The position numbers and the translations under genes were made by a program. Positions 16,861 to 33,752 of a DNA stretch of 40,000 bases are shown in pieces (within the stretch, counting starts at the first letter, position 1; each line of letters starts with the position of its first letter). The notes below the pieces were generated by a model. It did no database searches. It worked only from the letters and a program-made list of their open reading frames with translations, and was not told the origin of the DNA. This stretch comes from Shewanella khirikhana. Lineage in GTDB: Bacteria; Pseudomonadota; Gammaproteobacteria; Enterobacterales; Shewanellaceae. The stretch is from NCBI RefSeq assembly GCF_003957745.1, contig NZ_CP020373.1:43763-83762 (forward strand). Direction: 5' to 3'.

Positions 16861-16942
16861 GGATAAAGCGGTCGGAGTTAATTAAACCCAATCAGGTGCT
16901 ACACATCTTCAACCTGGTCAATGCCCAAGGAATAGAAAAGAG

Positions 16943-17280
16943 TGAGGACACCCACACCTTTTCTTAAACCCGCGCCCAAAGATTTCACTTCCTTACAGCC
17001 CTATCGATGCCGCTTTGGCGGCTGGGCTGAATACCCAAGATGTCTATATCTGAGCCAGATAGTTGTCAGTTGCTTTAACCAACATTCTGAAAAAGAACAG
17101 GTGCTTATCAAGGTTTGTATAAGAGTACGGACATTCACAGCTCTCTATACGGTCGCTTCGGACGGGATGGGTGTATTCCTCGGCAAAAGTGTTGTGGGTG
17201 TCCGCACTCTTTTCGGCACTCTTTTCCTGTCTTTTCCTTCATGACGAAGGCGCCAACAATTATGGGTGTCTGAGTTATTG
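16943..17280. repeat. Palindromic pair of partial repeat-core copies (MITE-like arrangement)
   Basis: The left arm, gaggacacccacaccttt...cgatgccgctttggcggctgggc (16943-17030), is an inverted-orientation core. The right arm, ggtcgcttcggacgggatgggtgtattcctcggcaaaagtgttgtgggtgtccgc (17150-17206), is a forward core. A further partial end, ttatgggtgtctgagtt, lies at about 17261-17277. Confidence 0.6.
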
Positions 17281-17303
17281 TCATTCACCCTATCTTTCAT
17301 AAG

Positions 17304-20183
17304 TTACAGTTGATACTTCAGCTTACCCTTTAACTCAGCAACATCCGTTACCTTCAGCTGATTAGGCAGTTTGGCAAAAGGCTTATCCTGATACTTAGTG
17401 CCCCGCAGCTGCACATTAATACGGGCAGCTTTGGGGTTAAGCATGGTCTGTGCATAAAAGGCTTTGATATCATCCAGGCTCACCAGCTCAATCGCTGCAA
17501 TCAGCTTGTCTTTTGAATCGTATTGCCACTTTTCAGCGAACCAATCCCCCCTTAGTGGTTCCACTTCCTCAAGCATATTCTTGGGTGCCTCTTTCAGTCC
17601 CACCAGCACACCATTCTTGATGTCAGCAAACTCCTGCTCAGACAATGTATCCAACTTGGCCTGATACTCTTTTTTGAAGCGGTCAAACCTGTCCTGAGCC
17701 TGTGACAAGTCCATTACCGGAGACTGAATGTAGATACCCACAGCTGCGTACTCATCGATGGGGTAGTCCCGCGCGCCTACTGAATAGGCCAGCTGCTCTT
17801 CTGTCCTGAGCTGATTAAACACCTCATGACGGAAATGCGCTGCCAGCACCTTGGCCATCGCCTTTTGCTCCACACCCGGTTGGGCATGTACCGTCAAATC
17901 GGCCAGTGCGATATCTGCCACTGCGGTATCCTGCTGATAGCTGAGCACCTGTCCCGGCTGTGGCACCACCCCCACCCCTTTAACGAAATCAATCTGCTGG
18001 TGCTCAGCTCCCAGAGCATTGGTAACCTCTTTGGCCACCAGTTCAAGCTCGGCATTGTCATAGTTACCAAAGGCCAGAATACGGGGTTGGTTGTGCTTAA
18101 TTAGCCCGCTAACTCTAGTGTTAAAATCTGCCAGTGACATTTTGTCAGCCGCAGCACTCAGCGCCTTATCTTCAAACTGATGCTGTTGGGTCAATTTCTG
18201 AAGCACCGGGAATAGCTGATAGATGGCAAGCTGCTTTTGCTTGTTGGCCAATGCCCGCACATATCTGTCTTTAGCTTGCTCGAAACTGGTTTCATCCACT
18301 GTGGGTTGCAGCCTCAGCATCTCCTGGAGCAGCAGCGGCTGCTTGTCGGTAAAGCCAAAAATCTGCAAATACATGCCCTGACCGACAATGGGCGAGGCAT
18401 AAATACCTGCCGCTCTTGCCTCAGCGGTCAGCTGACTTTGCTGCAGTTCATACAGATCCTCCCACAACTCCAGCGCCACCTGGTTTTCTATCTGTTCAAT
18501 GGCGTCGCCGACATTCAGATGAACAACCAACCCCCCTTTGGGCTGCTGAGAAAATTGCTGACTGGGGTAATGCCACACGTTCACGCCGTCTTTATCCACT
18601 TTAAGCTCAGGTTTTGCCTGCTGCATCCCCTGGGTTTTCAAAGTAAAGCGCTCCGGCATCATGCGGTTAACCCGGGGCAGAGCCAACGCGGTATTTGTTC
18701 CTTGCCAGCTGTCAAACTGGCTTTGTGGGATATCCTCAATTCGGTACTCGCCAGTGTAGAAGTGTTGGCTATCAGCAACCTCTTCATCTTTACTGATATA
18801 CCAAACTCTGAGCGTTTGCGGGGTTAGCTGCTCAAGCAGCCGATTAATGGCGTCTGCATTGAACTGACCGTAATAGTAATTGGCATTAATCGCATAATTA
18901 ATTGGATAGTCCTGCATGGTGTTAGCCAGGGCGAAGGCATAGTCGAACTCTTCCACCTTGCGTAGGAAGCGGAAATCGTTATCCAGCGAGGTTTTGATCT
19001 CGTTGAAATACTTTTTATCCACACCCTGTTGCTTCACCAGTTCTATGTACTGCATCACCAACGCCAGAGCTTCATCTCTGTGTTTCATGCCCTCATCGGT
19101 CAGATCCATGGTGATACTCAGTTCGCCATAGTTGCCGTAGTTCTTAGGGCTGGAGCTGGCATAAAGCGAACTTATCCAGCCCTTCTCTTTCAGCAGCTGT
19201 TCAGGCGTGCCCGGCATTTCAGAACCCAGCAGATAAGTCACAAAGCGATTGGGTTGATACATGAACTCATGGATATTGTTGCGTATGGTGAAATCCAGCT
19301 TTAGCTGTTTCACGTCTTTATTGGGCTTGTAATACACCTTCTTGCCGCCCACATCCGCAAAGTTTATTTCAGCGGTAATGCCAGGTTTGTCTATCTGCTT
19401 GTCTTTGATTGGGGAGAAGTGTTTGCGCGCCAACTTTTCCATTTCATCCAGTGGCAGATTACTGATCAGCGCCACCTTCATAATATTGGCCGAGTAGTAC
19501 TTGTCGTAGAAGGCTACTGTTTCGGTGTGTAACTTACTGCCCTCTTTATCACCCAGCGTTTCAAGGTTACCAATCAGGAAACGGTTGGCGGGATGCTCTC
19601 CCATCATTTGCCGTGAAAGCTTGAACTGACCGAAATAATCCAGCTCACGGCGCATGGACCATTCGGCATTCAGCGCACTCTTCGCTTTCTCAGAGGATTC
19701 AGGATAAAGCTTGGGAGACTTAAAGAAATCGGAGAAGCGGTCCAGCGCTTCATCGTAGGCGTCATTCTTCACCTTGAACATGTAACTGGTGCCGGTCATC
19801 CCGGTAGAGGCATTGGACGTACCGCCATTTTGAGACAAAAACTCTTTATATTCAGCGGTACCCGGGTACTTCTCAGTGCCCAGAAACAGCAAATGCTCCA
19901 GGTAATGTGCCAACCCCTGCTGAGTCATGGGGTCTTGTAATAAACCCACTCCCACAGTCAATGCTGCAGCTGACTTATCTGTGGAAGGATCAGATACCAG
20001 AATCACTTCAAGGTTATTGTCCAGCTTCAAGGTGCGATAACCACGTTGGTCATTGGGGCTGACCGCTAACTCAGTCAGAGGAGCCAACTGCTGAACCGAG
20101 GAAGTCTGTGAACTTTGATTTGTGCTGCTGCAACCCGACGTTATTGCCAAGAACAAGGTGCTCAGTGCCAGTGTTTTTTTCAT
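17304..20183 (-). CDS. M16-family zinc peptidase (pitrilysin/insulinase-like), probable lipoprotein or secreted
   Basis: It has the inverted zinc motif HxxEH in GLAHYLEHLLFLGTEKYP and, at about 959 aa, the two-lobed M16 size. The preferred start is the ATG at 20183 (MKKTLALSTLFLAITSGCSS), which has an upstream aaaggaa SD. The ORF-track start at 20243 adds 20 unlikely residues. Confidence 0.88.
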   Translation of the reverse strand: MKKTLALSTLFLAITSGCSSTNQSSQTSSVQQLAPLTELAVSPNDQRGYRTLKLDNNLEVILVSDPSTDKSAAALTVGVGLLQDPMTQQGLAHYLEHLLFLGTEKYPGTAEYKEFLSQNGGTSNASTGMTGTSYMFKVKNDAYDEALDRFSDFFKSPKLYPESSEKAKSALNAEWSMRRELDYFGQFKLSRQMMGEHPANRFLIGNLETLGDKEGSKLHTETVAFYDKYYSANIMKVALISNLPLDEMEKLARKHFSPIKDKQIDKPGITAEINFADVGGKKVYYKPNKDVKQLKLDFTIRNNIHEFMYQPNRFVTYLLGSEMPGTPEQLLKEKGWISSLYASSSPKNYGNYGELSITMDLTDEGMKHRDEALALVMQYIELVKQQGVDKKYFNEIKTSLDNDFRFLRKVEEFDYAFALANTMQDYPINYAINANYYYGQFNADAINRLLEQLTPQTLRVWYISKDEEVADSQHFYTGEYRIEDIPQSQFDSWQGTNTALALPRVNRMMPERFTLKTQGMQQAKPELKVDKDGVNVWHYPSQQFSQQPKGGLVVHLNVGDAIEQIENQVALELWEDLYELQQSQLTAEARAAGIYASPIVGQGMYLQIFGFTDKQPLLLQEMLRLQPTVDETSFEQAKDRYVRALANKQKQLAIYQLFPVLQKLTQQHQFEDKALSAAADKMSLADFNTRVSGLIKHNQPRILAFGNYDNAELELVAKEVTNALGAEHQQIDFVKGVGVVPQPGQVLSYQQDTAVADIALADLTVHAQPGVEQKAMAKVLAAHFRHEVFNQLRTEEQLAYSVGARDYPIDEYAAVGIYIQSPVMDLSQAQDRFDRFKKEYQAKLDTLSEQEFADIKNGVLVGLKEAPKNMLEEVEPLRGDWFAEKWQYDSKDKLIAAIELVSLDDIKAFYAQTMLNPKAARINVQLRGTKYQDKPFAKLPNQLKVTDVAELKGKLKYQL

Positions 20184-20245
20184 ACTAATTCCTTTTAAAT
20201 GAATATTTAGAGTTTGTATCACGCACCACGAGGACATCCACAATT

Positions 20246-20308
20246 CTCTGCGGCCGCCTCGAGCGGGATTGGGTGCATTCCTTGGCAGAAGTGCTATGGC
20301 TGGCCTTA
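20246..20308. repeat. Partial repeat-core copy (forward)
   Basis: ctgcggccgcctcgagcgggattgggtgcattccttggcagaagtgctatggctggcc matches the core seen at 12408-12465, 21098-21153, 21398-21460 and 22940-23000. Confidence 0.75.
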
Positions 20309-20402
20309 CTTTCCCCTATGATTTCAAAGGAAAGCAGGCAAATTTTGTCTGGTAATCGGAGTAGCTTCCAAGCATATTTGAAAACACCGCTAAACGAGAA
20401 TC

Positions 20403-20816: not shown

Positions 20817-21475
20817 GGAAAAGGCCTGCGTATTGAACGCGGGCCTTTTCCATTTCAGTGGTATCTGCCGAGGGCGGGGGAGTGTGAGATTTGGCCGTTC
20901 TCGGCGGCCCAAAATCGCCGCCTCCGGGCAAGGGGCTTTGCTTGTACAAAGCCCCTTGCATCCCAAAGGACACCCGCGACGAAGCGGACGACTCCTTGTG
21001 CGTTTTTGAGCCCATTGGCTACACGAGAGACTCGCATCCTGCTCGACCCTCGAGCTTCGACGTCCTGTCTCAGCTACGCCATGTGCTCAAACGCCCTGCG
21101 GCCGCTTCGAGCGGGATTGGCGTAACCCTCGGCATAAGTGTTATGGGTGTCCTGTCTTTTTTGCGCGACGAAGCGGACGACCCCTTGGGCATCAGGTGTC
21201 CTTTTGCTCTCGCGTCAGACGCTCGGATTTACATCCATCCCGGCTCGGCGTCAGTGCCTCGCGCTCGTGAGCTTGTCACTGCGTGACACACGCCCCTGAT
21301 TGACTGGCGCTGGTAAGCATCTGCCGGACAGGAGTCCCAATGCCGTGAAGGGCAGGACGCCCGTGAACGGCCATGCCTCGCTACGCCATTTTCAGCAACG
21401 CCCTGCGGCCGCTTCGAGCGGGATTGGGAGTATTCCTCGGCAAAGGCGTTTTGGGTGTCCTAGCTTTTCGACGAG
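20817..21475. repeat. Composite repeat block (copy 2, forward) with 1.5 tandem units
   Basis: The hairpin ggaaaaggcctgcgtattgaacgcgggccttttccatttcagtgg (20817-20860) starts the block. A unit then starts at cgcgacgaagcggacgactcc (20975) and ends at gggtgtcctgtctttttt (21145-21162). A second unit restarts with the same cgcgacgaagcggacgacccc (21165) and ends at gggtgtcctagc (21453-21464). Confidence 0.85.
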
Positions 21476-21479: not shown

Positions 21480-21914
21480 TTAGTTGCCTTTTTTATGGAA
21501 TATAAGGCTATAAGATGCAATAGAGATCATTAAAATTTGTACTAGAGATATAGCAACAGCCACTACTACCCATGGCATTAAACCGGTAAACACAACAGTT
21601 ATTGATGAGAGTATGAAGGTTAACAGTAACGTTATCAGCGTTACTAAGTAAAGTTCACCAAAAACTCTGAAGTAACCGTACTTTGCATAGCTCAATATTC
21701 TTGGTTTATCACTCATACCCACGATCACGGCTAAAGCCGTGATCAAGAAACCTAACATCGTAAAGCTGAATGTTGCCAGTATTGTCAGCAAAACATCTGA
21801 TTTGCTAGCTAGCTTCCCCAGCAGAGGCTTCGATATCCCCGCTTTCAGAAGGAAGTGCAAACCGATCCCAGGCGCTAGCATTACAGTAACTAGCAACATC
21901 CTCAAGCCTATCAT
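21480..21914 (-). CDS. rexB: RexB-like four-TM membrane protein (abortive-infection ion-channel component)
   Basis: It has four predicted TM helices. The preferred start is the ATG at 21914, preceded by aaaggt with 7-nt spacing, which gives 144 aa, the same length as lambda RexB. The central segment GMSDKPRILSYAKYGYFRVF resembles my recollection of lambda RexB ...GSRTRRLAKIREYGYMTSV.... It lies directly downstream of a RexA-like gene. Confidence 0.6.
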   Translation of the reverse strand: MIGLRMLLVTVMLAPGIGLHFLLKAGISKPLLGKLASKSDVLLTILATFSFTMLGFLITALAVIVGMSDKPRILSYAKYGYFRVFGELYLVTLITLLLTFILSSITVVFTGLMPWVVVAVAISLVQILMISIASYSLIFHKKGN

Positions 21915-22761
21915 TTGAATACCTTTCATCGTTTCTATATTCTGCCAGCTTCAAGCTCAATGGTTGATTCGCTAGCTTTTTCTCTGCAATCCTAGTCGCT
22001 ATACTCATTTCAGACGATTCAAGGTAATCGTTTATAAAGCCATTACCTGCGATATAAAAGTCTGACAACGACTCATCTAACGACTCTTTGGCCCTAACCA
22101 TGTACTTCTCAAGACCATCACCTGAAATCACATTTGTTAGAGCTGGAATATGTTCCTTAATATCACAACCGCGACGCGGTTTAAATGTAACTTCTATAGC
22201 ATCAATCTCATCAGGAAGAGTACCGCCAAAAAACTGCCCAAACTGCACGAACGCATTATTTGAGGCAGATACTTCAAAAGTTGTTCTACCAACTGAGTTC
22301 ATAGTCATGACATCACTTGAGCTAACCTGCACAGGAAATGGAGTAGCAATAAATTCATACGTCAATGACAGCGTTGAAAGCAGTTGTTCTATGAAGTAAA
22401 CAAAACTAGAGTTTTTTGGTCCTTGGCTAGTTGATGCAATCGCATAATGATCATTCTCGATATAGACATAGCTGGCGAAACCTACTTTTTCGTTGTCGTC
22501 TAAGTCATCTCTGATGTCTTCATATGTAAAGCTTTCGGAATTTATGATTTTTATAAGCTCGTTATTTTTTGTAGTAATCAGGGTAAACAAATGAGCATTA
22601 TTGCTAGGAATCAAGAAAATTGTTTCACCTGAACGAGATACAAATGACCGCTTCAAATGTGCAGGAGCATTCTGAACGTATGCTCGCAGTAAGTCTAAGA
22701 CGGTATGACGATACTTATTATCATTACGCTTAAAGTGATAAGAATAGTAAGTTAGTTTCAT
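21805..22761 (-). CDS. rexA: RexA-like protein (abortive-infection sensor component)
   Basis: 318 aa. Segments align with lambda RexA as I recall it. HLFTLITTKNNELIKIINSESFTYEDIRDDLDDNEKVGFASYVYIENDHYAIASTSQGP aligns with FLFTKTNDKSLVQKINRSKASVEDIKNSLADDESLGFPSFLFVEGDTIGFARTVFGP. VGRTTFEVSA aligns with IGRTTVKVEA, and TFKPRRGCDIKEH aligns with VIKPKFKRDIKKV. An SD (aaaggtg) precedes the ATG. The 3' end overlaps the RexB-like gene. Confidence 0.62.
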   Translation of the reverse strand: MKLTYYSYHFKRNDNKYRHTVLDLLRAYVQNAPAHLKRSFVSRSGETIFLIPSNNAHLFTLITTKNNELIKIINSESFTYEDIRDDLDDNEKVGFASYVYIENDHYAIASTSQGPKNSSFVYFIEQLLSTLSLTYEFIATPFPVQVSSSDVMTMNSVGRTTFEVSASNNAFVQFGQFFGGTLPDEIDAIEVTFKPRRGCDIKEHIPALTNVISGDGLEKYMVRAKESLDESLSDFYIAGNGFINDYLESSEMSIATRIAEKKLANQPLSLKLAEYRNDERYSNDRLEDVASYCNASAWDRFALPSESGDIEASAGEAS

Positions 22762-22844: not shown

Positions 22845-23010
22845 AGGCAACTAACAGTTGTATAGTGCGCATGGGGAGAGAGAGAGGACACCTACAACAC
22901 TTCGAAGTCTTGTCGCAGCTAAGCCATGTGCTCAAACGCCCAGCGGCTGCTTCAAGCAGCGGGATTTGTGTATTCCTCGACAGAAGTGCTATGGCTGTCC
23001 TGAGTTTTCT
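22845..23010. repeat. Repeat-core copy separating the Rex-like module from the MTase/HerA/NurA operon
   Basis: cttcgaagtcttgtcgcagctaagccatgtgctcaaacgcccagcggctgcttcaagcagcgggatttgtgtattcctcgacagaagtgctatggctgtcctgag is a diverged copy of the core at 12366-12468. It begins with aggcaactaaca (22845-22856), the inverted partner of tgttagttgcct at 21478-21489. Confidence 0.8.
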
Positions 23011-23028
23011 TTTGACTTGTTTCTGGTA

Positions 23029-24417
23029 CTAACCTGAGTTTCCGTTTATAGCTTCTTTGGCAAAACGCTGAAGTATTTTTGAGCTTGGCAAATCAGCAAG
23101 GGATACAAGCTTATTAGCCATAGCTACTGGAATTAATGCGCTATCATACATGTCGCACTTCAATCTAGCTATTGTATTCAAAACTTTGTCTAAATATCGA
23201 TAATCACTAACTGAAGGTGTTAACTTCTTTTGTTGCATAGGTAGTGTGACTACATACATATTTTCAGAATCAGATTTGAATATTATTTTTCCACCGTAAT
23301 AGCTTGTACTACCAAATGGAGTTTTAGAATTTGGGTCACCTGGATATACATATTTATAAAGATATGGTGTAGATAATATAAGAGCTGTTCCTTTTTTTAC
23401 ATATCCTTCAATTAACGATGCGTGCTCAACACATTGGCCACTTTTCTCTACTCCAGCCAGCTTGAGACCATATTTCATCTCCAAGTAAGAAACCATTCTT
23501 CTCATTGGCTTATGAATATTGGCTGTTTGCCCTGGGAAGCTGAGTGGACCATCTTTCAAAAATAAAGTGTTCTTAAGTAAATCTGGTTTTACAGCTTTTA
23601 ATAACTTAAAAATGTGGGCTAGCATTAACTGCTCTGTTGCCGATGTTACATAACCCATAACGCCCCCAGCACCTAGGATGTCATCTACCGCTTCATGTAA
23701 TCGGAATACATCTGTAATTCTTATTTCCTCACCACATGCAGTACAGGGAGTTAAAAATTTACCCTCAAAGTTGCTTCTATATAATTCTATATCCTTTGTT
23801 GAGCAGTGAGGGCAAGATGCCAATATCCATTTATCATCCCGCTCTTGGTCGTTGAACGTGCTTCCGTCTTTTCTTTCTTCATTTGGAAGATATTCAGAAA
23901 AAAGTAACCACTTTAAAGTTTGACATAGATTTGAACTATCACCTAAATCAGAAGAAAGAAAAAACTCAAACAAAGTTTTTGATATTGTCTCTGTAAGTGT
24001 TCTGCAATCTTTTCTACATACATGATTAGATGGTAACACTAGTTTCAATCTATCGATTTTATTTAATTTTGCAATATCTTCAGGATCAATAAACTTACTA
24101 CTGTCTAATTCCTTTAAATCAGACATCTTCAACATCATCGCACCAAATTGAAAGAAACAGACATTTGAAGATGGGTATCCCTTATCTACTTCAACATCAG
24201 TGTAACCGCCGTCAATTACAACAATTTGGTCAATGCCCGTGCTACCACCTCTGATTAAATGGTGCTCTATACTCTGCAGCTCAATGTCATTCTTCTTTAT
24301 CGGAAGTCTACAGTTTTCTAACAGAGACTTCATTTTTGGATCATTTATAAGCTGACTATGGGCAGATTTGCTGGCAGATTCAAATGGCTTGTATCCTTTT
24401 CCACTGGAGTAGGCCAT
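23029..24417 (-). CDS. NurA-like nuclease with an inserted CxxC...CxxC zinc ribbon
   Basis: 462 aa from the ATG at 24417, which sits 1 nt after the HerA stop (TAAcATG). The ORF-track start at 24483 would overlap HerA by 65 nt. NurA-type motif series: QIVVIDGGYTD, LFLKDGPLSF, LAGVEKSGQ and ALIPVAMANKLVSL. A zinc ribbon (CPHCSTKD...CTACGEE) is inserted. It is partnered with a HerA ATPase, as in archaeal and bacterial HerA-NurA operons. Confidence 0.6.
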   Translation of the reverse strand: MAYSSGKGYKPFESASKSAHSQLINDPKMKSLLENCRLPIKKNDIELQSIEHHLIRGGSTGIDQIVVIDGGYTDVEVDKGYPSSNVCFFQFGAMMLKMSDLKELDSSKFIDPEDIAKLNKIDRLKLVLPSNHVCRKDCRTLTETISKTLFEFFLSSDLGDSSNLCQTLKWLLFSEYLPNEERKDGSTFNDQERDDKWILASCPHCSTKDIELYRSNFEGKFLTPCTACGEEIRITDVFRLHEAVDDILGAGGVMGYVTSATEQLMLAHIFKLLKAVKPDLLKNTLFLKDGPLSFPGQTANIHKPMRRMVSYLEMKYGLKLAGVEKSGQCVEHASLIEGYVKKGTALILSTPYLYKYVYPGDPNSKTPFGSTSYYGGKIIFKSDSENMYVVTLPMQQKKLTPSVSDYRYLDKVLNTIARLKCDMYDSALIPVAMANKLVSLADLPSSKILQRFAKEAINGNSG

Positions 24418-24418
24418 G

Positions 24419-26464
24419 TTAGCATCCTTTTTCGTCGTGTACTTTAGGGAATTTGTGGATTTGAACAGGAATAACAAAAGCACTAGAGTAGGTCTTCATT
24501 CGAACGAAACCTTTATCATTTCCAGAGCTGAATTTTGTTAATGCTGAAGTGAAATCGGCAAAGTCATAGTATTTTTTAATTTCCCTTGTTTCATCATCAT
24601 TGTTCAAATGTGCAATAAACCAGTTTTGTGTGTTTTTAAGAATGTTGGAACTTATTGAGCTAACTTCTTGCGTGGCATAAACCATACCCAAATTAAGCTT
24701 GGCTCCTTCTTTTGCGATTCTGTTGTATATTTGTTTTAGATCTTTGTCGTCTTTTTTGGGGAATAGGTTGTGAGCTTCTTCGAAGTAAAATTGTATGAAA
24801 TTATTTGCATTCATACTAATGAAGTTTTCCATGGCGTCATTGAATATAGCTCGGCATATTCGCTCTGAGTATGTTGCTTGTATCTCAGGATCACCTTGAG
24901 AAAGGTCGACAATAACAATTTTTCCTCTACGTAATGACTTTAATATGTCGATGTCGAAACTAATGTCACTTTTCGATGTGTGCAGACCTTTAAGTGGTGA
25001 AAGCATTTTGAAGCCGCTGACGGAGTTGTTTAACTGTCTCTTTCCTGTAAGCATAACTAGTACAGCTTTCAGGCTCTCATCTGCCCAATCTTTTCCATTT
25101 TTATTTTTATATTTTGTAAAAAATTCGTTCCCTTCTAGCATGCTTGTCCAAACATTTTCAAACCAAGTACATGCGGCGCTCAAACTAATCCCTTTACTTG
25201 GATCTTTTTCGTCGTCTGGAAAGGCAATTTTATTGAGATCTTTGTTGCCAGAGAACTTAATTGTTGTAAAGTTATCGGGTACCTTGAATCCTGATTTGTA
25301 TAGACAGCAAATATAGGCAGCTTTTAGTCGATCGTACCGCGTTGTTATAGATCTACCTTCGTCATCGTTCTTGCCATATCCTTCCGGAGTATCGAGACTT
25401 ATCGAGGTGAAGCTCCCAATATAATGTGAGCTTTCACCATTTTGGCTAAAATGAGAGCATATAAGTTCAAATCCGTCACTGAGGTCTTTAAAGAAATTAA
25501 CCTTCATGACTTTAAAACCATCTTTCTCTATTGTACTAAATCTGTCAGTCCTATTTTCGTAAATTTCAAATATTGCAGTACCCTTGTCCTGGGCATTCGG
25601 ATTGGCATACTCACCATTGATGTCAAAGATTAGTTGACCGGATTTGAACTTTGGAGTGCCATCTTCAGTAAATGGCTCTAGTAGCTCTAAAGGATTGCTT
25701 GGTCTATAAGATTCAACGTCCAGAGTTGCTTTGTCGCTCATATCACAACATGCTGATATAATGGTTTTTACCGTATTAGACTTACCTGTTCGAGTCATCC
25801 CAAATAACGCAGTTCTTTTACCTAGAAAGTCAGTAGGAGTTACATAAACAGGTACATCTTTTTCAGCAGAAGAGAATCTTCTTGATGAACTGTATCTTAC
25901 TTTTCCGATTTCAATATCAGTTGGTCTCCCTACGATATTATCGTCCCTGAAGTTTGCTAGCAATGTTAATACACGAACATTGGGCTTCACTACAGTGTAA
26001 TTATGAGCACTAAAAAAATTTTCTAAATCAGCACCAAATAAAGTGTCATCTCCCTCATTGTAGAAAGTTCCCAGTACACGGCATTCTATTCCTGAAAAGC
26101 CCATTTCATATCTGGTGAAACTATCAATCTTATCTGGTTCAGACTTTAGGTCCACTCCCTCTTTGTAGTAGTCAATCATTGACGCGATAACGTCATTGTC
26201 CGTCGGTAATTTTGCCGGACCAATAACTCTTAACAGCACTGCTTCTTTTACATCTATATCATGCTCATAATAAGCCAAAAGAAAACAACCTTGAGGGATC
26301 CCATTCGCCTTGTATTTTCTAGCATCAGCAACCAATACATTTACCTTGTCATAGTCAATGTAAAATGGTCTGCCAACCTCTATCCCTGTTGCGTACGTTC
26401 CATCTTGTTCTCGCTGAAACATATCTGTTTTTGCAAGATTAATTACTTCGTTGAAGATCCCCAT
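24419..26464 (-). CDS. HerA/FtsK-superfamily ATPase (DUF87-type, HerA-like translocase)
   Basis: 681 aa. Motifs: Walker A FGMTRTGKSNTV, the HerA-typical FDINGEYANP, Walker B GKIVIVDLSQGD, FYFEEAHNLFP, and the sensor region GMVYATQEVSSISSNILKNTQNWFIAHLNN. An N-terminal barrel-like region runs ATGIEVGRPFYIDYDKVNVLVAD...LLRVIG. An SD (aaggag) lies inside the 3' end of the upstream MTase gene, 5 nt from its stop. Confidence 0.8.
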   Translation of the reverse strand: MGIFNEVINLAKTDMFQREQDGTYATGIEVGRPFYIDYDKVNVLVADARKYKANGIPQGCFLLAYYEHDIDVKEAVLLRVIGPAKLPTDNDVIASMIDYYKEGVDLKSEPDKIDSFTRYEMGFSGIECRVLGTFYNEGDDTLFGADLENFFSAHNYTVVKPNVRVLTLLANFRDDNIVGRPTDIEIGKVRYSSSRRFSSAEKDVPVYVTPTDFLGKRTALFGMTRTGKSNTVKTIISACCDMSDKATLDVESYRPSNPLELLEPFTEDGTPKFKSGQLIFDINGEYANPNAQDKGTAIFEIYENRTDRFSTIEKDGFKVMKVNFFKDLSDGFELICSHFSQNGESSHYIGSFTSISLDTPEGYGKNDDEGRSITTRYDRLKAAYICCLYKSGFKVPDNFTTIKFSGNKDLNKIAFPDDEKDPSKGISLSAACTWFENVWTSMLEGNEFFTKYKNKNGKDWADESLKAVLVMLTGKRQLNNSVSGFKMLSPLKGLHTSKSDISFDIDILKSLRRGKIVIVDLSQGDPEIQATYSERICRAIFNDAMENFISMNANNFIQFYFEEAHNLFPKKDDKDLKQIYNRIAKEGAKLNLGMVYATQEVSSISSNILKNTQNWFIAHLNNDDETREIKKYYDFADFTSALTKFSSGNDKGFVRMKTYSSAFVIPVQIHKFPKVHDEKGC

Positions 26465-26469
26465 AAGTC

Positions 26470-27417
26470 TTATCTCCTTTGACTAAATCTTATTTTTGAA
26501 TGTTTCAAGTACTCTTCTTGTGCTTCTATTGAAATCCATCGCCTTCCTAGAGTTTGGGCTGTATATCCTGTTGTATTGCTTCCTCCAAAAGGATCTAAGA
26601 CAAGATCATTTTCGTCTGTAAGCATTTGAATAAAAAATGCTGCTAACCCCTCAGGCATTCTCGCTGGATGGGGGATGATTCCTAGATCTCTGCACTTTCT
26701 ATGATAGTAATCATTAGAACTGGTGTTCGAAAATGCAAATGAGTTCGGTAATCGCACATCTCTACTTGAATCCATTACTTCTAATTCAAAGAAGTTATGA
26801 GCTATACTTCCACCATTATCTTTTAAAAATCCTGTTTCACTTATATCATGCTCAGATGGACGTTTTCCCGCATTGTAAGAACCTTTTGCTTGGAGCTGTT
26901 TTTGCTTTTTGCTATAAGGTCTAAGGACCTTACTGTTATCAGCTTTAGGAAAATCCGATTTAGACATCCACCACACATTAGTATAGCTGTCAGTCGCTCT
27001 TATTCTTTTTTGAGTGACCCAAGGAGCTGGCGAAGGTAATCTTGATGGGTTATAGCAGATAAATTGCTGACATAGACGAAATCCAGCTTCTTCATTTTTG
27101 ACAAAACCCATTAAAGATTCTAATGGAAGTAGGGATTGCACAGGTCGCTTTGGCTCCCATGAATTTCCCAACTCAATTACAACAGAACCATCATCAGTCA
27201 ACAGGCGTGAAAATATAGGAGCCATACTTATAAACCACTCTAAGTATTCTTTTTCAGTTAAATTTCCATATTTCTTTTTTCTATTTAATAGATAAGGTGG
27301 TGAGGTTAAAATTAGGTTTACCGAGCCTTCTATTTTCTTCCCGAGGTTTCCACTGAGGAGCTTAATTGAGTCTCCGATGTGGTATTGTCCTAGTTTAGTT
27401 TTTTGTCTAATTGCCAT
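26470..27417 (-). CDS. Beta-class amino-DNA methyltransferase (N6-adenine or N4-cytosine; N6_N4_Mtase family)
   Basis: 315 aa. The catalytic motif IV, LILTSPPYLL, is near the N-terminus. The AdoMet motif I, LVLDPFGGSNTTGYTAQTLGRRWISIE, is near the C-terminus. This IV-to-I order defines the beta class. It is the first gene of the AT-rich three-gene operon. Confidence 0.85.
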   Translation of the reverse strand: MAIRQKTKLGQYHIGDSIKLLSGNLGKKIEGSVNLILTSPPYLLNRKKKYGNLTEKEYLEWFISMAPIFSRLLTDDGSVVIELGNSWEPKRPVQSLLPLESLMGFVKNEEAGFRLCQQFICYNPSRLPSPAPWVTQKRIRATDSYTNVWWMSKSDFPKADNSKVLRPYSKKQKQLQAKGSYNAGKRPSEHDISETGFLKDNGGSIAHNFFELEVMDSSRDVRLPNSFAFSNTSSNDYYHRKCRDLGIIPHPARMPEGLAAFFIQMLTDENDLVLDPFGGSNTTGYTAQTLGRRWISIEAQEEYLKHSKIRFSQRR

Positions 27418-27664
27418 ACTTATTTATTAATCCCTAAAAGACAGTCGATTTTTCTGTATCGCATTTTTTTTGATAATCTTCATTTAATTTTACTCATGTA
27501 AAAAGGTAACAGGGGCCTACGGTGTACTATTTAACTACAAAAGTAAGTACTCCTATTTTTTGCCCCATTGTACCGAATCTACAGGTTGCACCAAGATGCC
27601 ATATTGGTTTGTGATTGTTTCAGCCCATAAGTCCAAGGGGCTGTCGGCGTCACCGGGAATTGCT

Positions 27665-28371
27665 GTTGATTCCCTCTTGCCCTGTGTGAGCGGAGCTCAC
27701 GACTTTCGCCAAGCGCAACTTGGCATTAACCCCTAAACCGTAGTTAGGGCGGTAACCCTTATCTCCAGGCATAGCTACCGCACGGCGCGTTTCGTCTGTG
27801 AAACGCATCTTCAACAAAAAACATTTTTAAAACAACATCAAAGCTAACAGTTTGGCGGTGGCGAAACCTTGGTTGAGGTCAAAAAACACGCCAAAGCCCA
27901 TAGTGGCTGATTGGAGGGAAAAACGAGGAGGTTAAGTAACAGAAAGCCTTCCTTGCTGCTTAGAGCCGAATAGCCAGACGCTAACGGCGCTGCGCATCTT
28001 CCCTGATCCACACTGTTGATTTGATAGCTTGATTGCGACCTGCAAAGCCTATGGCTGACCTGAACTGCAAGTTGATTTAGCAAACCCTTAAGCTGGCTTA
28101 ATAATCAGATGCTTATCAGCTGAAAGTACATCAATCAAAAAGTGGAACCAGACTACCGTATGGTGTTTTAACAGGCAAGTGTTGGCTGCGGTAAATCACG
28201 AAGCAGATTAAGGAGCTGGTGAGTGCTTCTTTCTTTGTTTATTTCTTTCTTCCTTCCTTGAGATAGGGCGGCTCTGCAAACGGCTGCTATCGACTTTCGG
28301 ACCGTAAAAAGAAAACCCCGGACTGTGCCGGGGTTTTGCTTGGTGTCACTGTGTGGCAAAGAGCATGCTAC
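27665..28371. repeat. Right copy of the roughly 0.7-kb direct repeat (partner at 16120-16860)
   Basis: See the left-copy entry. The copies are colinear with an offset of about 11.51-11.55 kb. This copy ends 10 nt before the stop codon of the Tim44-like gene. Confidence 0.9.
28312..28337 (-). terminator. Rho-independent terminator of the Tim44-like gene (hairpin family copy 3)
   Basis: aaaaccccgg-actgtg-ccggggtttt. On the minus strand it is followed by ctttttac. It lies about 45 nt downstream of the stop at 28381. Confidence 0.75.
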
Positions 28372-28380
28372 TGCGCGCTT

Positions 28381-29268
28381 TTATTGCTGGATGCCCACAA
28401 TCAGCCAGGGGGCGTTGGCATGCAGCAGGTTTCGCTCCAAATGCCAGACTTCCTTGATGTCTTCTTCTACCCCTTCAACGGCATCGCGGTAGCGGCCGCT
28501 GAATTTTACGCTCACTTCGGCAAGCGCGTTGTTGTAGGTGGCGCGCACCAGTTCGGCGTCGAGGAACATCACTTCGGTGTGCTGCTGGCCATCGAGTTCA
28601 CGGCGTTGCTGGCTGAGTTCGTTAAAGAGCTCAATCGACACGTATTCCTGAATTTTGTTCAGATCGCCCTCATTCCAGGCCTGTTGCAGGGTTTTGTAGT
28701 GGCCGCGGGCGCCTTCCAAAAAGGCGGCTAAATCGAAACCCGGCGGCAAGTGAAATGGCACTGTGCTCTGGGGCTGGGCAAAACCGCTGTTGCCGCTATG
28801 GCCACCAAAGGCGGCAGGCTCAGACTGCTGGCGATAAAGGTCCTGGCCAGGTGCGGCGCTGGCTTGCCCTACACCTGAATAGGCTGGTCTTGGCTGCGCC
28901 TGTGCTTTGGAGGCCATCAGCATGCGGATGACTTTAAACAGCACGAAGGCAAGCAAGGCGATGATCACTATGTCCATAATCTGGATGTTTTCAAAACCTT
29001 CGCCCATAAAGAGTGCCGCCAGTAAGCCACCCGCCAGCAGGCCGCCGAGCATACCGCCCATCATGCCTTTTTTAGCCGCAGGTGCTGCCGTGGCAGGTGC
29101 AGCAGGGGTATTGGTAGCAGTGGTATTGGTGGCCGCAGGCTGCGACTGTGCCGTTTGCTGAGTCTTACCGGCAGATTTATTGCTGCCGAATTTCTTTGCT
29201 TCCACCACAGGGCTGGTTGCCAGGCTGACGGCAAAAAACATCGCCAGCATAATGAATAACTTTTTCAT
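28381..29268 (-). CDS. Tim44-like domain protein (membrane-anchored)
   Basis: 295 aa with a signal/anchor (MKKLFIMLAMFFAVSLA), a low-complexity T/A/P-rich linker and a glycine-zipper TM (MMGGMLGGLLAGGLLAALFMG). The C-terminal Tim44-like region runs FDLAAFLEGARGHYKTLQQAWNEGDLNKIQEYVSIELFNEL...VWHLERN...PWLIVGIQQ. Confidence 0.75.
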   Translation of the reverse strand: MKKLFIMLAMFFAVSLATSPVVEAKKFGSNKSAGKTQQTAQSQPAATNTTATNTPAAPATAAPAAKKGMMGGMLGGLLAGGLLAALFMGEGFENIQIMDIVIIALLAFVLFKVIRMLMASKAQAQPRPAYSGVGQASAAPGQDLYRQQSEPAAFGGHSGNSGFAQPQSTVPFHLPPGFDLAAFLEGARGHYKTLQQAWNEGDLNKIQEYVSIELFNELSQQRRELDGQQHTEVMFLDAELVRATYNNALAEVSVKFSGRYRDAVEGVEEDIKEVWHLERNLLHANAPWLIVGIQQ

Positions 29269-30022
29269 TTATTCCATCTCTATTTTGAACGCCGAATGGC
29301 AGGCATCATAACGTCATGTTAGTTCATGTCAATGGTGATAAAAGTCGCATTAATAAGAAAACGCTGAATATTAAAAACCCTGCAGTTTAATTTAAGGTTG
29401 ATTTAAGCTTTAGGGTGTTTAAACCCGTTAGGTAAAGTGCCTGAGTCGTGCTGCGTCTTTTTTTTGCTATCAAGGTTGCAGGTATTTAATGTGTGATTGT
29501 TTAGGGTAAATTTAATTAAAAATTAAATGATATCAGTGCTATATCGGATTTCTTTTTTGGTTTTATCAAGTTTTTATTAATTGGTGGGATCGGATTGTTA
29601 TATTTTTAATGAGTAAGATGGCTGTGGCTCGCCAAGCTCTATATGGCGTATTGAACTTTTATCTTGCTACTAAGGTGTTGTGTATTAAGTTGGTTTGATT
29701 TTAGTCAGCATTGTGATTATAAAACGTCTTGTCTGGATTATTAAATTAAACCTTGATGAATGCTTGGTAGCCATAAAAATATAAAGACGCGCCTTAATAA
29801 TACTGTGGCACCAGCGAAATCGAGTGTTTTTTGGCGAGCCACAGGCGTAGGGCTGGCTGCTGTCGTTTGTGTTGAGGCCTGTGGATTAGGGAAGGTGCAG
29901 CTTGTCCGGTGCGCGCCATCAGTTTCTAGCTGTGCTAAAGTGCGCAGAGTCTCGCCGCTGACAGCCAAATGCTGAAAGCCTACTCGTCTTTAATATGAAT
30001 CGGCCTGTTATAAGAATCGCCC

Positions 30023-30496
30023 GTGAAAAAAATCGCCCTGTTTGTCGATGTACAAAACATCTATTACACCTGCCGTGAGGCGTATCAGCGCCAGTTTAAC
30101 TATCGCAAACTCTGGCAGCAGCTCTGTGCTGAGGGGGAAATTGTCAGCGCCTTTGCCTACGCCATTCATCGCGGCGACGATGGCCAGTTAAAGTTTCAGG
30201 ATGCCATGAGGCATATTGGGTTTGAGCTTAAGCTTAAACCCTTTATTCAGCGCAGCGACGGCTCGGCCAAGGGCGATTGGGATGTGGGCATTACCATAGA
30301 TGTGCTGGAGACAGCGCCCGAGGTGGATTGCGTGATACTGCTGTCGGGCGATGGTGATTTTGCCCTATTGCTTTCAAAGATAAGGCAAAAATATGGCGTT
30401 GAAGCCGAGGTGTATGGCGTGCCTACGCTCACCGCAAAATCCCTGATGGATGCGGCAAGCCGCTTTCATCCCATCGATGAGTCCTTACTGCTCTAA
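30023..30496 (+). CDS. NYN-domain (LabA/DUF88-like) putative RNase
   Basis: 157 aa with a GTG start. The motifs IALFVDVQNIYYT and VILLSGDGDFALLL are the acidic-residue motifs typical of NYN/LabA proteins. Confidence 0.75.
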   Translation: MKKIALFVDVQNIYYTCREAYQRQFNYRKLWQQLCAEGEIVSAFAYAIHRGDDGQLKFQDAMRHIGFELKLKPFIQRSDGSAKGDWDVGITIDVLETAPEVDCVILLSGDGDFALLLSKIRQKYGVEAEVYGVPTLTAKSLMDAASRFHPIDESLLL

Positions 30497-30555
30497 ACTC
30501 ACGCGCCTGCGTGCATCTGCTTTTCCGCCTTCGCTCTTTGCTTATTCCCCCGCGC

Positions 30556-30621
30556 TATCCACTTAGCCGCATACGCTTATCCACTTAGCCGCATACGCTT
30601 ATCTGGTTAGCCGCCTGCGTT
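30556..30621. repeat. 22-bp tandem repeat, 3 units (third degenerate)
   Basis: tatccacttagccgcatacgct occurs twice exactly (30556-30577 and 30578-30599), followed by tatctggttagccgcctgcgtt (30600-30621). It lies between the convergent NYN and globin genes. Confidence 0.9.
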
Positions 30622-30709
30622 CGTCTGCGTCGCCGCAGTTGCGCTGGTACTTGCCACTAAAAACCTGACTCTTGCGATATAGAATCTGTCGCAAGCGGCT
30701 TAAAAGTGG

Positions 30710-31123
30710 CTACTGATAGGTCACGTCGCCATACATGGGGGCAAGGCGTTTTAACAGGGCGTTGCGGGTCGATGTCGGAACGTCTGCATCCTTCATGGAT
30801 TCAATCAGGTGCCCCACCAGGGCATCAAAGTCGGCCTGAGTGATATTCAAACCCCGATGGCTGTCGGCCATATTTTCGCCCTGATAGACACAGCCACCAT
30901 CGGTAACAGCACACAGATGCTCGATAAGGCGCTCGCGGAATATCGCAATATCCGTTTCGTCGAAGTGGTGCACTATGCGGGGATCCCGTGCGATCCGCTC
31001 AAGTAATCCATCGACAATCTGGACGACGCCCACCTCGCCACCGAGGGCCTGATATAGGCTGGGCCGGCTGGTGTGTGGCGGGTGCCTGAGTATCGTTAGG
31101 CATAGCGCAGCCTGTGAGAGCAA
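30710..31123 (-). CDS. Group I truncated hemoglobin (trHbN-like)
   Basis: The globin 2-on-2 signature is SLYQALGGEVGVVQIVDGLLERIARDPRIVHHF...HRGLNITQADFDALVGHL. There is no in-frame ATG upstream of the globin core. The ORF-track start is a TTG at 31123 and an in-frame stop lies at 31181-31183, so the true start is uncertain. Confidence 0.7.
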   Translation of the reverse strand: MLSQAALCLTILRHPPHTSRPSLYQALGGEVGVVQIVDGLLERIARDPRIVHHFDETDIAIFRERLIEHLCAVTDGGCVYQGENMADSHRGLNITQADFDALVGHLIESMKDADVPTSTRNALLKRLAPMYGDVTYQ

Positions 31124-31460
31124 GTGCTGAGCGGCGCGATGGATCCCCAGTAATCGAGTGGCGCCATGGAACCCCAGTAATCAGCAGTCACAGCGGTTGC
31201 CAAGCTCAGGGCCAGCGGCAGTTTTGGTTAGCCGTTGCCGAATTGGCTGTCAGGACCAGATCCTGGCAACACCCGCAGCCATATGTACGAAAGTGCTAGT
31301 GTCTAGCCCTTAAGTGGCAATCCCGCCGATGTCGACTACCCTTATCCGTTCTCCTTGACCAAGGCAGGAGGGGTTGTTGTGGCAGGATGCGTTCGCGAAA
31401 CTCTGACCTGCATTCGTCTGGTTAGCAGGAGCTTATTCAAAGACGAAAAGGGAAATCAGT

Positions 31461-33752
31461 ATGCAAGTCAAATCACTCTCCACGGCATGGGGGCTGGGTG
31501 CGCTGGCGCTTTGCTCCGGCCTCACATTCAGCGGCGCTGCGCTTGCCGAGCAAATCAAAATCCAGAATGTGCACTTTGATGCCGACACTAATCAACTGTT
31601 GGTGAAAGCCAAAATCGATGGTCATCACCACAGGCAGGACAGCGCCGGTGATGCCTATATCGAGATTGTGGATGCGGCCAATCCGGGCTTTGTATTAAGT
31701 GCCTTTCAAACCCCAAAGCAAATCCACAGTAAAATCGATGCCGCGAGTCTCGCGTTTCTGCCGTGCCAGGTCGGCATAGTGGTTAATGGCGATATGGCCA
31801 ATATGGCGGTTGCCGATGTGAAAAACGTGCCCGCCAGTTGCGGCGGTTTTGCGGCCACCATCACCGGCTTGGTGACCGACGAGCCTATTCCTTATGCCAC
31901 AGTGTCTGTCACCCTCAATGGCAACACCTTTACCACGGTGGCGGATGAAAACGGCGCGTACAGCCTGGATGTGCTCACCACCAACATTGAGCAGCTGTTG
32001 CTGATTGAGTCGTCGGCCACCAATGCCGAAACCGGCGACAGCATCGACTTTGTCAATCTGGTGGGCAGCTTTTCCAGGGTGCTCAGTGAAGATGACCCCA
32101 TCAATGTGACTAACCTGACCACGGCCAAATACAGCCTGGTGCTTGAGGCCAATGGCGGCGAGCAACCGGCCACGCTGGCGGAACTGGAACAGGCCGAAAC
32201 CGCGGTGGACGCCACCGAGCTGTTTCAGCTGGCGGCCATTATCAAGTTGATTGTGGATGACCCCAATTATCAGCTGCCGGAAGGCTTTGACAGTATCCTC
32301 AGCTTTATCGCTGACGACGCCGCAGTAGAGACCTTTGTCGCCAGTACGCCACCTGAGACGCTGGAGCAGGCGCTTGCGGACATTCTGGCCGACAGCAATC
32401 TGGTGGCCGGGTTCAGTGCCGCCGATGTGCCCAGCCTCTATTACGCCATCAGCACCACCAGCCCAGGCTTTATGGCGCGAAGTGGTGCGGCGCTGGAATT
32501 TGATAATGTCACTATGACGGGCACAGATCTCAGGTTTCAGCAGTGGAACGGGCAGGCCATCAACGAAAGCTTTAACTGGCAGATAGCGAATGGCCGCATC
32601 GAGGCGAGCTACCCCAATGCGACCGTGACCGAGGAGCTGACCGACAGTATCGAATATGTGACCGACGACCCGGCAGAAATCGCCGCATACTATGCCGGGG
32701 GCGGCGTGACAGATCTGTTTGTGACCCGTCGCAGCCTGGTCCAGCGGGCCTACACCCGGGTGGTGGATGGCAGCCTGGTGGATCTGGTGTCGGTGGAGTC
32801 CCGCAGTGAAATTAACACCCCACCGATTTTGCTTAACGATGGCAGCACCCTCACCATAGCTCAGCCGAAACTACTGCTGGAAACTGCGACCCAAAACTTC
32901 CGGGCCAACTACGATATCGACAATATTCCCTTCGTTACCGGCTGCAGCTCGGGTGATACCTGCCTGGCTGGGCTTTGGGGCGGGCAATACCATTATTCTG
33001 AAGGGTTAAGGGTCTACGACGACTATCTGTTCCCCCATACTGCCTACGCCGATGCACTGCAGTTTGCTGCCAACGGCACAGTAATGGGCAAGCACTCCAA
33101 CGTGAGCGCCAATTGGCAGGTGGATGGGGCAGGAAGGCTGGTTATCACTTACGCCGATGGCATGACCCAGACCAGCCAAATTCTCGATAAGCTCGGCATT
33201 GAGTTGGGGGTGTTTTCGGTATTCGAGCACGGCGGTCAGCGTTTTGCCGTGTATGACATTTGGGTGAAGGGCGATGCCAGCATGCAACTGGGGGCGGCCG
33301 AGTTGCAGCCCAGTTCCGCCAGCCGTTTCTGGGTGGGGGAAATCAACAGCTGGCTGCCGGGCTCGGTGGATGCCATGGGGCTGCTCAGTTACGAGCGCCT
33401 GTGGGGCTGGCAGTTCAATGGCGCTGAAGTGCAAAACACCTTTGCCAGCGGCGATTGGAGCGCGCCGGATGAAAATGGCCTCAGCAGTATTCCCTTCGTT
33501 CAGGCCGCACCTGTGCCCTATCAGGTCGAAACTGACTATGTGCGAATCGATCGCTTACCCTTCGCGCAGCGCTACTGGTACCCGATTAACAGCCAGATGA
33601 TTGATGGTGAGCGGGTGTTTTATGTGGTGGAGCGTGAGGAGCGGGATGGCGAGGTCTATGGTCGTGCCCCCGGCTTTCGCACCTTTATTCCCGCCCGTAT
33701 CAACATAGAGCGTGAGCGGGATATGGCGGATTACACCAACGTGGCCCGTTGA
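31461..33752 (+). CDS. Large secreted hypothetical protein with a CarboxypepD_reg-like beta-sandwich
   Basis: 763 aa with a signal peptide (LGALALCSGLTFSGAALA). The segment ITGLVTDEPIPYATVSVTLNGNTFTTVADENGAYSLDV is typical of carboxypeptidase-regulatory-like domains. I do not recognise the rest. Confidence 0.7.
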   Translation: MQVKSLSTAWGLGALALCSGLTFSGAALAEQIKIQNVHFDADTNQLLVKAKIDGHHHRQDSAGDAYIEIVDAANPGFVLSAFQTPKQIHSKIDAASLAFLPCQVGIVVNGDMANMAVADVKNVPASCGGFAATITGLVTDEPIPYATVSVTLNGNTFTTVADENGAYSLDVLTTNIEQLLLIESSATNAETGDSIDFVNLVGSFSRVLSEDDPINVTNLTTAKYSLVLEANGGEQPATLAELEQAETAVDATELFQLAAIIKLIVDDPNYQLPEGFDSILSFIADDAAVETFVASTPPETLEQALADILADSNLVAGFSAADVPSLYYAISTTSPGFMARSGAALEFDNVTMTGTDLRFQQWNGQAINESFNWQIANGRIEASYPNATVTEELTDSIEYVTDDPAEIAAYYAGGGVTDLFVTRRSLVQRAYTRVVDGSLVDLVSVESRSEINTPPILLNDGSTLTIAQPKLLLETATQNFRANYDIDNIPFVTGCSSGDTCLAGLWGGQYHYSEGLRVYDDYLFPHTAYADALQFAANGTVMGKHSNVSANWQVDGAGRLVITYADGMTQTSQILDKLGIELGVFSVFEHGGQRFAVYDIWVKGDASMQLGAAELQPSSASRFWVGEINSWLPGSVDAMGLLSYERLWGWQFNGAEVQNTFASGDWSAPDENGLSSIPFVQAAPVPYQVETDYVRIDRLPFAQRYWYPINSQMIDGERVFYVVEREERDGEVYGRAPGFRTFIPARINIERERDMADYTNVAR

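Follow-up and report, generated by a model that had tools for sequence, protein, structure and literature searches.

On the chromosome of Shewanella khirikhana we identified a cassette of three tightly packed minus-strand genes, which encode, in this order, a DNA methylase, a HerA-family ATPase and a NurA-like nuclease. It occupies positions 23029-27417 of the 40,000-nucleotide (nt) stretch of DNA that was analysed, hereafter the window (positions 43,763 to 83,762 of contig NZ_CP020373.1). We propose, with a probability of about 0.62, that this cassette is an unnamed, horizontally mobile and self-contained restriction-modification (R-M)-like phage defence system, with the HerA-NurA pair serving as its cutting arm. 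The proposal is built on features that were observed directly, namely the domain identities of the proteins, the fold of the nuclease, the conservation of catalytic residues, the co-inheritance of the three genes and the exchange of the modification gene between branches. The features of the cassette are as follows (aa, amino acids; ORF, open reading frame; AdoMet, S-adenosylmethionine):

26470-27417, minus strand: gene 1, DNA methyltransferase, M.PvuII-like, beta class; ORF of 315 aa; predicted N4-methylcytosine product
27292-27303, minus strand: SPPY catalytic motif of gene 1, residues 39-42; aligns with SPPF of M.PvuII
26566-26595, minus strand: DPFGGSNTTG AdoMet-binding motif of gene 1, residues 275-284; aligns with DIFGGSNTTG of M.PvuII
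26462-26479, minus strand: methylase/HerA junction; AAGGAG at 26474-26479 within the methylase 3' end, TAA at 26470-26472, 5-nt spacer, HerA ATG at 26462-26464
24419-26464, minus strand: gene 2, HerA-family ATPase; ORF of 681 aa
25778-25801, minus strand: Walker A of gene 2, GMTRTGKS, residues 222-229; G222-S229 invariant in 28 homologues
24770-24790, minus strand: Walker B region of gene 2, FYFEEAH, residues 559-565; F559-H565 invariant in 28 homologues
24415-24421, minus strand: HerA/gene 3 junction, TAA-C-ATG, read from the sequence
23029-24417, minus strand: gene 3, NurA-like nuclease with an inserted zinc ribbon; 462 aa from the ATG at 24417
23734-23814, minus strand: zinc ribbon CPHC...CTAC of gene 3, residues 202-228, inserted in the NurA fold; C202, C225 and C228 invariant across subfamilies

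A first-pass annotation, made from this DNA alone, had described the close packing of the three genes, and the junctions can indeed be read directly from the sequence. The methylase stop and the HerA start codons lie 5 nt apart (...CAAAGGAGATAAGACTTATG), with the Shine-Dalgarno sequence inside the 3' end of the methylase gene, and the HerA stop is followed after a single base by the next start codon, as TAAcATG (...TGCTAACATG). The longest ORF of gene 3 spans 23029-24483, and its start was taken as the ATG at 24417, one base past the HerA stop. The block has a G+C content of 37.2% (36-38% for the individual genes) as against 54.9% at 1-20000 and 56.0% at 28400-40000 in the flanks, and the cassette is a foreign AT-rich island in the chromosome; the two 60-nt samples from which its AT-richness had first been noticed, 30% G+C at 24001-24060 and 55% at 33001-33060, were reproduced. 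Within the block there is no endonuclease-like or specificity-subunit ORF of at least 60 aa, in agreement with the earlier statement that these conventional components are lacking, and the remaining ORFs are antisense inside the three genes. Likewise, every motif that had been listed for the three proteins was found, in the order given. The gene 2 and gene 3 products are each 100% identical to a protein of S. khirikhana.

The gene 1 product matches the Pfam model N6_N4_Mtase (5e-36) and the PADLOC model MTase_II PDLC03323 (1.8e-85), and aligns over its full length, including the central target-recognition part, to M.PvuII (1boo, 4e-72); its identity to the copy carried by pPvu1, the original Proteus vulgaris plasmid, is ~42%. 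Its catalytic and AdoMet-binding motifs are both intact at the locus. The previous assignment to the beta-class amino-methyltransferases can hence be narrowed to a homologue of M.PvuII, and on account of the SPPY motif the protein is best read as an N4-cytosine (m4C) enzyme. Across 53 loci with three intact genes (described below), the target-recognition region shows a mean identity of 67%, compared with 58-65% for the catalytic parts; that it is as conserved as the catalytic parts suggests a single fixed methylase specificity across the family. The PvuII site CAGCTG occurs 32 times in the whole window, against 16.5 expected from shuffles, and is absent from the 7.5-kb low-G+C island (none between 20541 and 28116). 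We rejected these counts as a clue to specificity.

The gene 2 product had been placed in the HerA clade by its motifs, and profile, sequence and structure searches agree on this placement. It scores above the curated cutoff of Pfam DUF87 (7e-15, 56 bits versus a cutoff of 23), matches the PADLOC HerA models with E-values down to 3e-20, and in a sequence search of the PDB retrieved ten HerA-family matches, of which TdpA (8wet, 9e-18) was the best, followed by DUF4297-HerA, Sulfolobus HerA and SIR2-HerA. The match to TdpA has ~17% identity and is confined at the sequence level to residues 506-669. The predicted layout comprises a beta-rich N-terminal part, a RecA-like core and a ~200-aa helical insertion (residues ~301-510), which is the least conserved segment of the protein, with a mean identity of 50%. 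The AlphaFold model is poor, with a predicted local distance difference test score (pLDDT) of 60 that falls below 50 in the ATPase C-terminus. In a Foldseek search with this model the top six matches were TdpA chains, and all 50 among the matches listed were HerA proteins; the template-modelling scores (0.25-0.3) are unreliable because the model is poor, and we used the ranking alone, as it agrees with the sequence search. The protein also displays FDINGEY (280), IVIVDLS (516) and ATQ (597), and EEAH (562) within the Walker B region.

Gene 3 is more divergent. Its sequence gave no matches in Pfam, PADLOC, NCBIfam or PHROGs, and neither the single sequence nor a profile of the family matched any protein in the PDB, NurA included. 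Its AlphaFold model is usable (pLDDT 78.5, predicted template-modelling score 0.79), and Foldseek searches of the PDB with this model recovered a TdpB chain as the best match (8wfd_G, 2.7e-7), followed by the NurA proteins of D. radiodurans (9e-6), Sulfolobus (3e-4) and Pyrococcus (7e-4), with Thermococcus NurA and TM1739 further down. Pfam NurA is also matched weakly by 20 of 28 close relatives (best 3e-7). At the level of the fold and of its relatives gene 3 is probably a NurA; the window protein's own sequence has no Pfam NurA match. We predict from the model that it adopts a NurA/RNase-H-like fold with a zinc ribbon. The motifs IDGG (68), KDGPL (288) and VEKSG (323) are present, together with the zinc-ribbon motifs CPHC (202) and CTAC (225), and relatives of gene 3 show weak matches to zinc-ribbon models of Pfam. 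D69, D236, E262, D289 and H332 are invariant across subfamilies that are only 23-28% identical, and these acidic and histidine residues are candidate catalytic residues. The zinc ribbon is the least conserved segment (41% mean identity), next to the N-terminus (42%). All three cassette proteins are free of membrane-like hydrophobic stretches (maximum Kyte-Doolittle 0.8-1.1).

When one genome per species was scanned, gene 3 proved to have 190 relatives, and 80 loci were retained. These span ~19 phyla, including archaea: the bacterial loci come from Cyanobacteria, Chloroflexota, Bacillota, Bacteroidota, Patescibacteria, Planctomycetota, Acidobacteriota, Actinomycetota, Deinococcota, Spirochaetota, Synergistota, Thermotogota, Omnitrophota and Pseudomonadota, and the archaeal ones from Methanosarcinales and Methanotrichaceae. 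The HerA gene lies directly 5' of the NurA gene in 77/77 loci with enough sequence. Methylase adjacency was counted in the 67 loci with at least 3 kb of upstream sequence; a PvuII-like methylase is adjacent in 60 of them, in 58 cases in the methylase-HerA-NurA order of the window; of the two further methylase-bearing loci, one keeps this order and has HerA interrupted by an insertion, and in the other the methylase is divergently oriented. Thus, the first-pass annotation's expectation that the three genes would be syntenic in other genomes is borne out, the trio being conserved as a block across these phyla. Clustering of all ORFs of the loci recovered no fourth conserved gene. Over the 53 loci in which all three genes are intact, the divergences between pairs of loci are correlated, with r=0.79 for methylase and HerA, 0.82 for methylase and NurA, and 0.91 for HerA and NurA (Mantel p ≤ 0.001 each). 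The cassette proteins of bacteria and archaea are ~45-65% identical to each other, a level of similarity that shows the cassette to be transferred horizontally, as a single piece.

In a few loci the HerA gene is broken: by a ~1.4-kb insertion in L028 (8296-9708), by an IS200/IS605 element (tnpA and tnpB) in Deferribacter (L082 3515-5294), and by a split into two ORFs in a Vibrio phage (L081 1309-3502) and in three metagenome-assembled genomes (L002, L023 and L057). Assembly errors may explain some of these cases, and inactivation of the restriction arm may explain others. A scan of IMG/VR with patterns of the close family gave no match.

Relatives of gene 3 at a greater distance (23-28% identity) likewise adjoin full-length homologues of gene 2 (32-37% identity) along with a DNA methylase, though one of a different class. 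A D12/Dam-like methylase is found in the same gene order in Wolinella, Chlorobium and Paramagnetospirillum, and in Pantoea and a Vibrio temperate phage it is encoded downstream on the opposite strand, the phage HerA/NurA cassette also adjoining an integrase. A ~400-aa methylase of the N6_N4 type occurs upstream of the pair on a Deferribacter megaplasmid and downstream of it on a Halorarius plasmid. Conversely, PvuII-like methylases that are 42-55% identical to gene 1 are paired elsewhere with an HNH endonuclease, with R.PvuII, or with a DEAD helicase, a small protein and an AAA ATPase. Each half of the cassette thus occurs with different counterparts of the opposite type, which is the signature of a modification module joined to a restriction module. 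Among plasmid homologues of the methylase the closest (55% identity), on an Aurantiacibacter plasmid (L088 3875-8834), precedes genes for a DEAD/DEAH helicase, a 'DNA modification system-associated small protein' and an AAA ATPase; here the same methylase family forms the basis of another multi-gene system.

From these comparative genomic patterns we infer a role in defence and a logic in which methylation would distinguish self from non-self. The methylase would set m4C at a fixed recognition sequence of the host DNA. Being the first gene, it would be translated first, with the HerA and NurA genes putatively coupled to it translationally, an arrangement that fits a system establishing protection before restriction. 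The remaining steps are modelled by homology on HerA-NurA and on TdpAB, the ATPase and nuclease of the TdpABC system of thermophiles: a ring of the HerA-like ATPase would pump double-stranded DNA in an ATP-driven manner, and the NurA-like nuclease, as a dimer, would dock on this ring, by analogy forming a complex with it, and cut the DNA that is fed through. Incoming unmethylated phage or plasmid DNA would be degraded, and methylated host DNA spared. The sulphur mark of the Tdp system reportedly blocks TdpAB on self DNA, and we propose for this reason that m4C plays the same protective role in the cassette. Our best guess for the reader of the methyl mark is one of two inserts, HerA's helical insertion (~301-510) or the NurA zinc ribbon, both of which are clade-specific, most variable, and absent or shorter in TdpA and TdpB; alternatively, the methylase itself could be the site sensor. 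More tentatively, the cassette could exemplify a class of R-M systems that dispense with a sequence-specific endonuclease, in which HerA-NurA loads, for instance at free ends, and shreds DNA until stopped by base-methyl marks that are read in the course of translocation. Such marks, m4C here and N6-methyladenine (m6A) in the Dam-linked branch, would then act as a Chi-like 'self' signal.

The HerA-NurA of archaea and Deinococcus is an established end-resection machine, in which a ring translocase feeds DNA to the nuclease. The cassette resembles it in the adjacency of the two genes, the Walker A/B ATPase and the RNase-H-like nuclease fold, but differs in being mobile, of low G+C, linked to a methylase and devoid of mre11 and rad50, neither of which was found in the window or among the conserved or immediate neighbours of the loci. 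Moreover, the NurA of the window lies below the detection limit of Pfam NurA and bears a zinc ribbon, unlike the archaeal and Deinococcus versions. The anti-phage systems SIR2-HerA and DUF4297-HerA (Gao_Her/Nezha) likewise couple a HerA ring ATPase to an effector, and their solved HerA chains are significant but weaker matches of gene 2; in the cassette the effector is NurA-like and a methylase is present. We rejected membership of these systems, there being no SIR2 or DUF4297 match and only 42 bits against the cutoffs of 800-850 of the corresponding NCBIfam models. The likeness to the PvuII Type II R-M system of pPvu1 is that of the full-length homologous methylase described above; the cassette lacks an R.PvuII-type endonuclease and a C protein, and has HerA-NurA in the place of the restriction gene. 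Membership of this system was also rejected, as the block has no other ORF for R.PvuII or the C protein. MADS, the methylation-associated defence system with its mad1-mad8 gene set, was discarded because of a partial mad8 match only (1.4e-12, to HerA) with no other mad models, and Hma because components are missing.

The closest parallel is TdpABC, described as a phosphorothioate-based R-M system for which a single modification gene suffices (An et al., Nat Chem Biol 2025, cited in PMC12914056). Both systems combine one modification gene with a HerA-type ATPase and a NurA-type nuclease, and TdpA and TdpB (structures 8wet and 8wfd) are the best solved matches of genes 2 and 3, remote as they are (11-18% identity). 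The two differ in that the modification in the cassette would be a methylation of bases rather than backbone phosphorothioation by TdpC, and in size, the cassette proteins being ~100 aa longer each than TdpA (586 aa) and TdpB (358 aa) by virtue of the HerA helical insertion and the NurA zinc ribbon. With no TdpC modification gene, and an amino-methyltransferase as the conserved third gene, the locus is not a Tdp system, and that assignment was rejected. A second precedent is an operon of the Thermus thermophilus element ICEth1, which encodes the NurA-like TTC1878, the HerA/FtsK-family tdtA (TTC1879) and the pfam01555 methylase TTC1880 (PMC5365140, PMC7767461). In that element, which provides the one genetic study known of an operon so composed, DNA donation (transjugation) requires both the nuclease gene and the ATPase gene, and loss of the methylase has only minor effects (PMC5365140, PMC7767461). 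The likeness to the cassette is one of composition, together with residence on a mobile element; the gene order (NurA-TdtA-methylase) and the lengths of NurA (377 aa) and of the methylase (410 aa) differ, and ICEth1 additionally has the Type IIG enzyme Tth111II, an integrase and att repeats, with neither a Type IIG enzyme nor an integrase present in the Shewanella island.

PADLOC-DB 2.0 (2023) contains no model for gene 3, a search of the full-text literature, which leaves subscription journals largely uncovered, found no description of an anti-phage system made of a methylase, HerA and NurA, and 2026 reviews make no mention of NurA or Tdp. The novelty that had been claimed for the trio is correct insofar as neither PADLOC nor the open literature has a name for it, but was overstated given the precedents of TdpABC and ICEth1. 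We put the chance that the trio is already named somewhere at roughly one in four, and classify the cassette as a TdpAB-type R-M-like system that uses base methylation.

Several observations weigh against the proposed defence role. In seven of the 67 loci HerA and NurA are intact without an adjacent methylase, indicating that the nuclease pair is tolerated without a linked one. In five Nostocales loci (L001, L012, L015, L035 and L045), whose HerA-NurA pairs are of the same subfamily (~60% identity), the methylase upstream is replaced by a gene for an 82-86 aa protein of the XRE helix-turn-helix (HTH) type, and the fully annotated Tolypothrix plasmid L091 likewise has such a gene in the methylase place:

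L001 6116-6376: XRE-type HTH gene
L012 7655-7903: XRE-type HTH gene
L091 8663-8911: XRE-type HTH gene, Tolypothrix plasmid

To these may be added that searches of Pfam, PADLOC and NCBIfam detected no methyl- or sequence-reading domain in HerA or NurA, that gene 3 has no PADLOC match, that the HerA-like protein falls far short of the NCBIfam anti-phage HerA equivalogs, as noted above, and that the genetics of the similarly composed ICEth1 operon show a DNA-donation phenotype with a nearly dispensable methylase. A rival scheme puts the same parts into a Type III or BREX-like logic, in which the methylase would sense unmethylated sites on incoming DNA and recruit or license HerA-NurA, which would have no reader of its own. 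The lack of a detectable specificity domain in either protein favours such a scheme, as does the co-evolution of the methylase with both partners (r about 0.8), and the conservation of its target-recognition region fits constraint from these partners. However, the methylases of the distant branches are of an unrelated class and may lie downstream or on the opposite strand, which is hard to square with a conserved interface, and the seven methylase-less loci retain HerA-NurA nonetheless; on balance we regard this scheme as rather unlikely. That the cassette is a DNA-donation module as in ICEth1, with HerA and NurA processing chromosomal DNA and exporting it to a neighbouring cell and the methylase a mere accessory, is suggested by the shared operon composition and by the requirement there for nuclease and ATPase, loss of the methylase having only minor effects. 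Yet none of the Type IIG enzyme, the integrase, the att repeats, the gene order and the 377-aa NurA of ICEth1 is conserved in the cassette loci; the cassette occurs in ~19 phyla of unrelated lifestyles, and beside a temperate-phage integrase; TdtA is membrane-associated, whereas the cassette proteins have no hydrophobic stretch; and the exchange of methylase classes between branches fits self-marking better than an accessory role. Donation is a serious rival all the same, but appears quite improbable.

The compactness and mobility of the unit, its horizontal spread into varied flanks and the presence of relatives on plasmids and a prophage would also suit a selfish addiction module, in which loss of the cassette kills cells as methylation decays and the nuclease persists, defence being secondary or absent; classical Type II systems, the PvuII family included, are known for such behaviour. 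Addiction is compatible with defence and does not exclude it, but the insertions and frameshifts in HerA (L028, L082, L002, L023 and L057), taken with the methylase-less loci, show that either half can be lost without obvious lethality, and we consider addiction as the primary role to be improbable. The least credible alternative, with a probability close to negligible, is housekeeping double-strand-break repair by HerA-NurA next to a methylase that is adjacent by chance. It has in its favour the established role of HerA-NurA in end resection and the public annotation of the relatives as 'DNA double-strand break repair nuclease NurA'. It is opposed by the lack of mre11 or rad50 neighbours, the foreign low-G+C character of the island, the ~45-60% cross-phylum identity between bacteria and archaea, which implies horizontal transfer, and the conservation of the methylase linkage in several independent branches.

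If the cassette is a defence system as we propose, it would represent a widespread three-gene immune system, which is currently annotated as DNA-repair genes and an orphan methylase, and which would go unrecognised by PADLOC-DB 2.0 for want of a nuclease model. The superfamily of NurA proteins with a zinc ribbon comprises 966 clusters at 50% identity, and two of its branches comprise >1400 and >1100 clusters at 90% identity; were the motor-nuclease to read methyl marks, thousands of genes now labelled 'DSB (double-strand break) repair NurA' and 'DUF87' would become immune genes. The TdpAB principle would thereby be extended from backbone sulphur to ordinary base methylation, with HerA-NurA as a general restriction module that works with different marks, namely phosphorothioate in Tdp, m4C in the cassette and probably m6A elsewhere. 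The question then arises of how a base methyl group can be recognised by a ring translocase-nuclease. Conversely, the 'transjugation' operon of Thermus ICEth1 is possibly a defence module and deserves re-examination.

The surroundings of the cassette contain two further features:

21480-22761: RexA/RexB-like abortive-infection pair; RexA Pfam 5e-44 and PADLOC 4e-43, RexB PADLOC 2e-10
27473-27502, minus strand: promoter-like site TTTACA-18-GATTAT from a consensus scan, ~55 nt 5' of the methylase ATG; weak

The matches of the first of these substantiate the Rex-like neighbour that the first-pass annotation had noticed. With 39-40% G+C, the RexAB genes share the low-G+C island with the cassette, and one repeat copy (see below) lies between them; RexAB adjoins the trio in none of the 80 other loci. 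Immediately beside the cassette in other genomes there are ResIII helicases (7 loci) and Septu PtuAB (4 loci), along with AbiEii-type and OLD-type ATPases, PD-(D/E)XK nucleases, TnsA-like proteins, integrases and insertion sequence elements, and in L015 a pair of the cyclic oligonucleotide-based anti-phage signalling system (CBASS), consisting of a DncV-like cyclase and a SAVED protein, directly follows HerA-NurA. The defence-island setting suggested earlier is in keeping with these defence and mobile-element genes, in a comparison that is descriptive only and made without a matched background. As for the promoter-like site, the consensus scan found no more such sites in the region than are expected from shuffles.

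The ~960 nt that separate the methylase start from the next gene (27418-28380) hold no ORF longer than 79 aa and have ~42-52% G+C. A search of this gap for a structured RNA gave no Rfam match (best E 0.11) and a folding z-score of -1.3, and it is possibly a decayed gene or a scar of the insertion of the island. Four copies of a repeat of ~110-130 nt are found at 20241-20312, 21040-21170, 21345-21470 and 22885-23015, with inverted ends (AGGACA...TGTCCT) and an inner GC hairpin. As integron attC sites they are doubtful: no GTTRRRY cores were seen by eye, no integrase was found, and their single strands fold just slightly better than shuffles (z -0.9 to -1.6). The trio at its 3' end and RexB are each immediately followed by one copy, and an M16 peptidase gene begins right beside a partial one, a layout that looks like cassettes split by a repeat.

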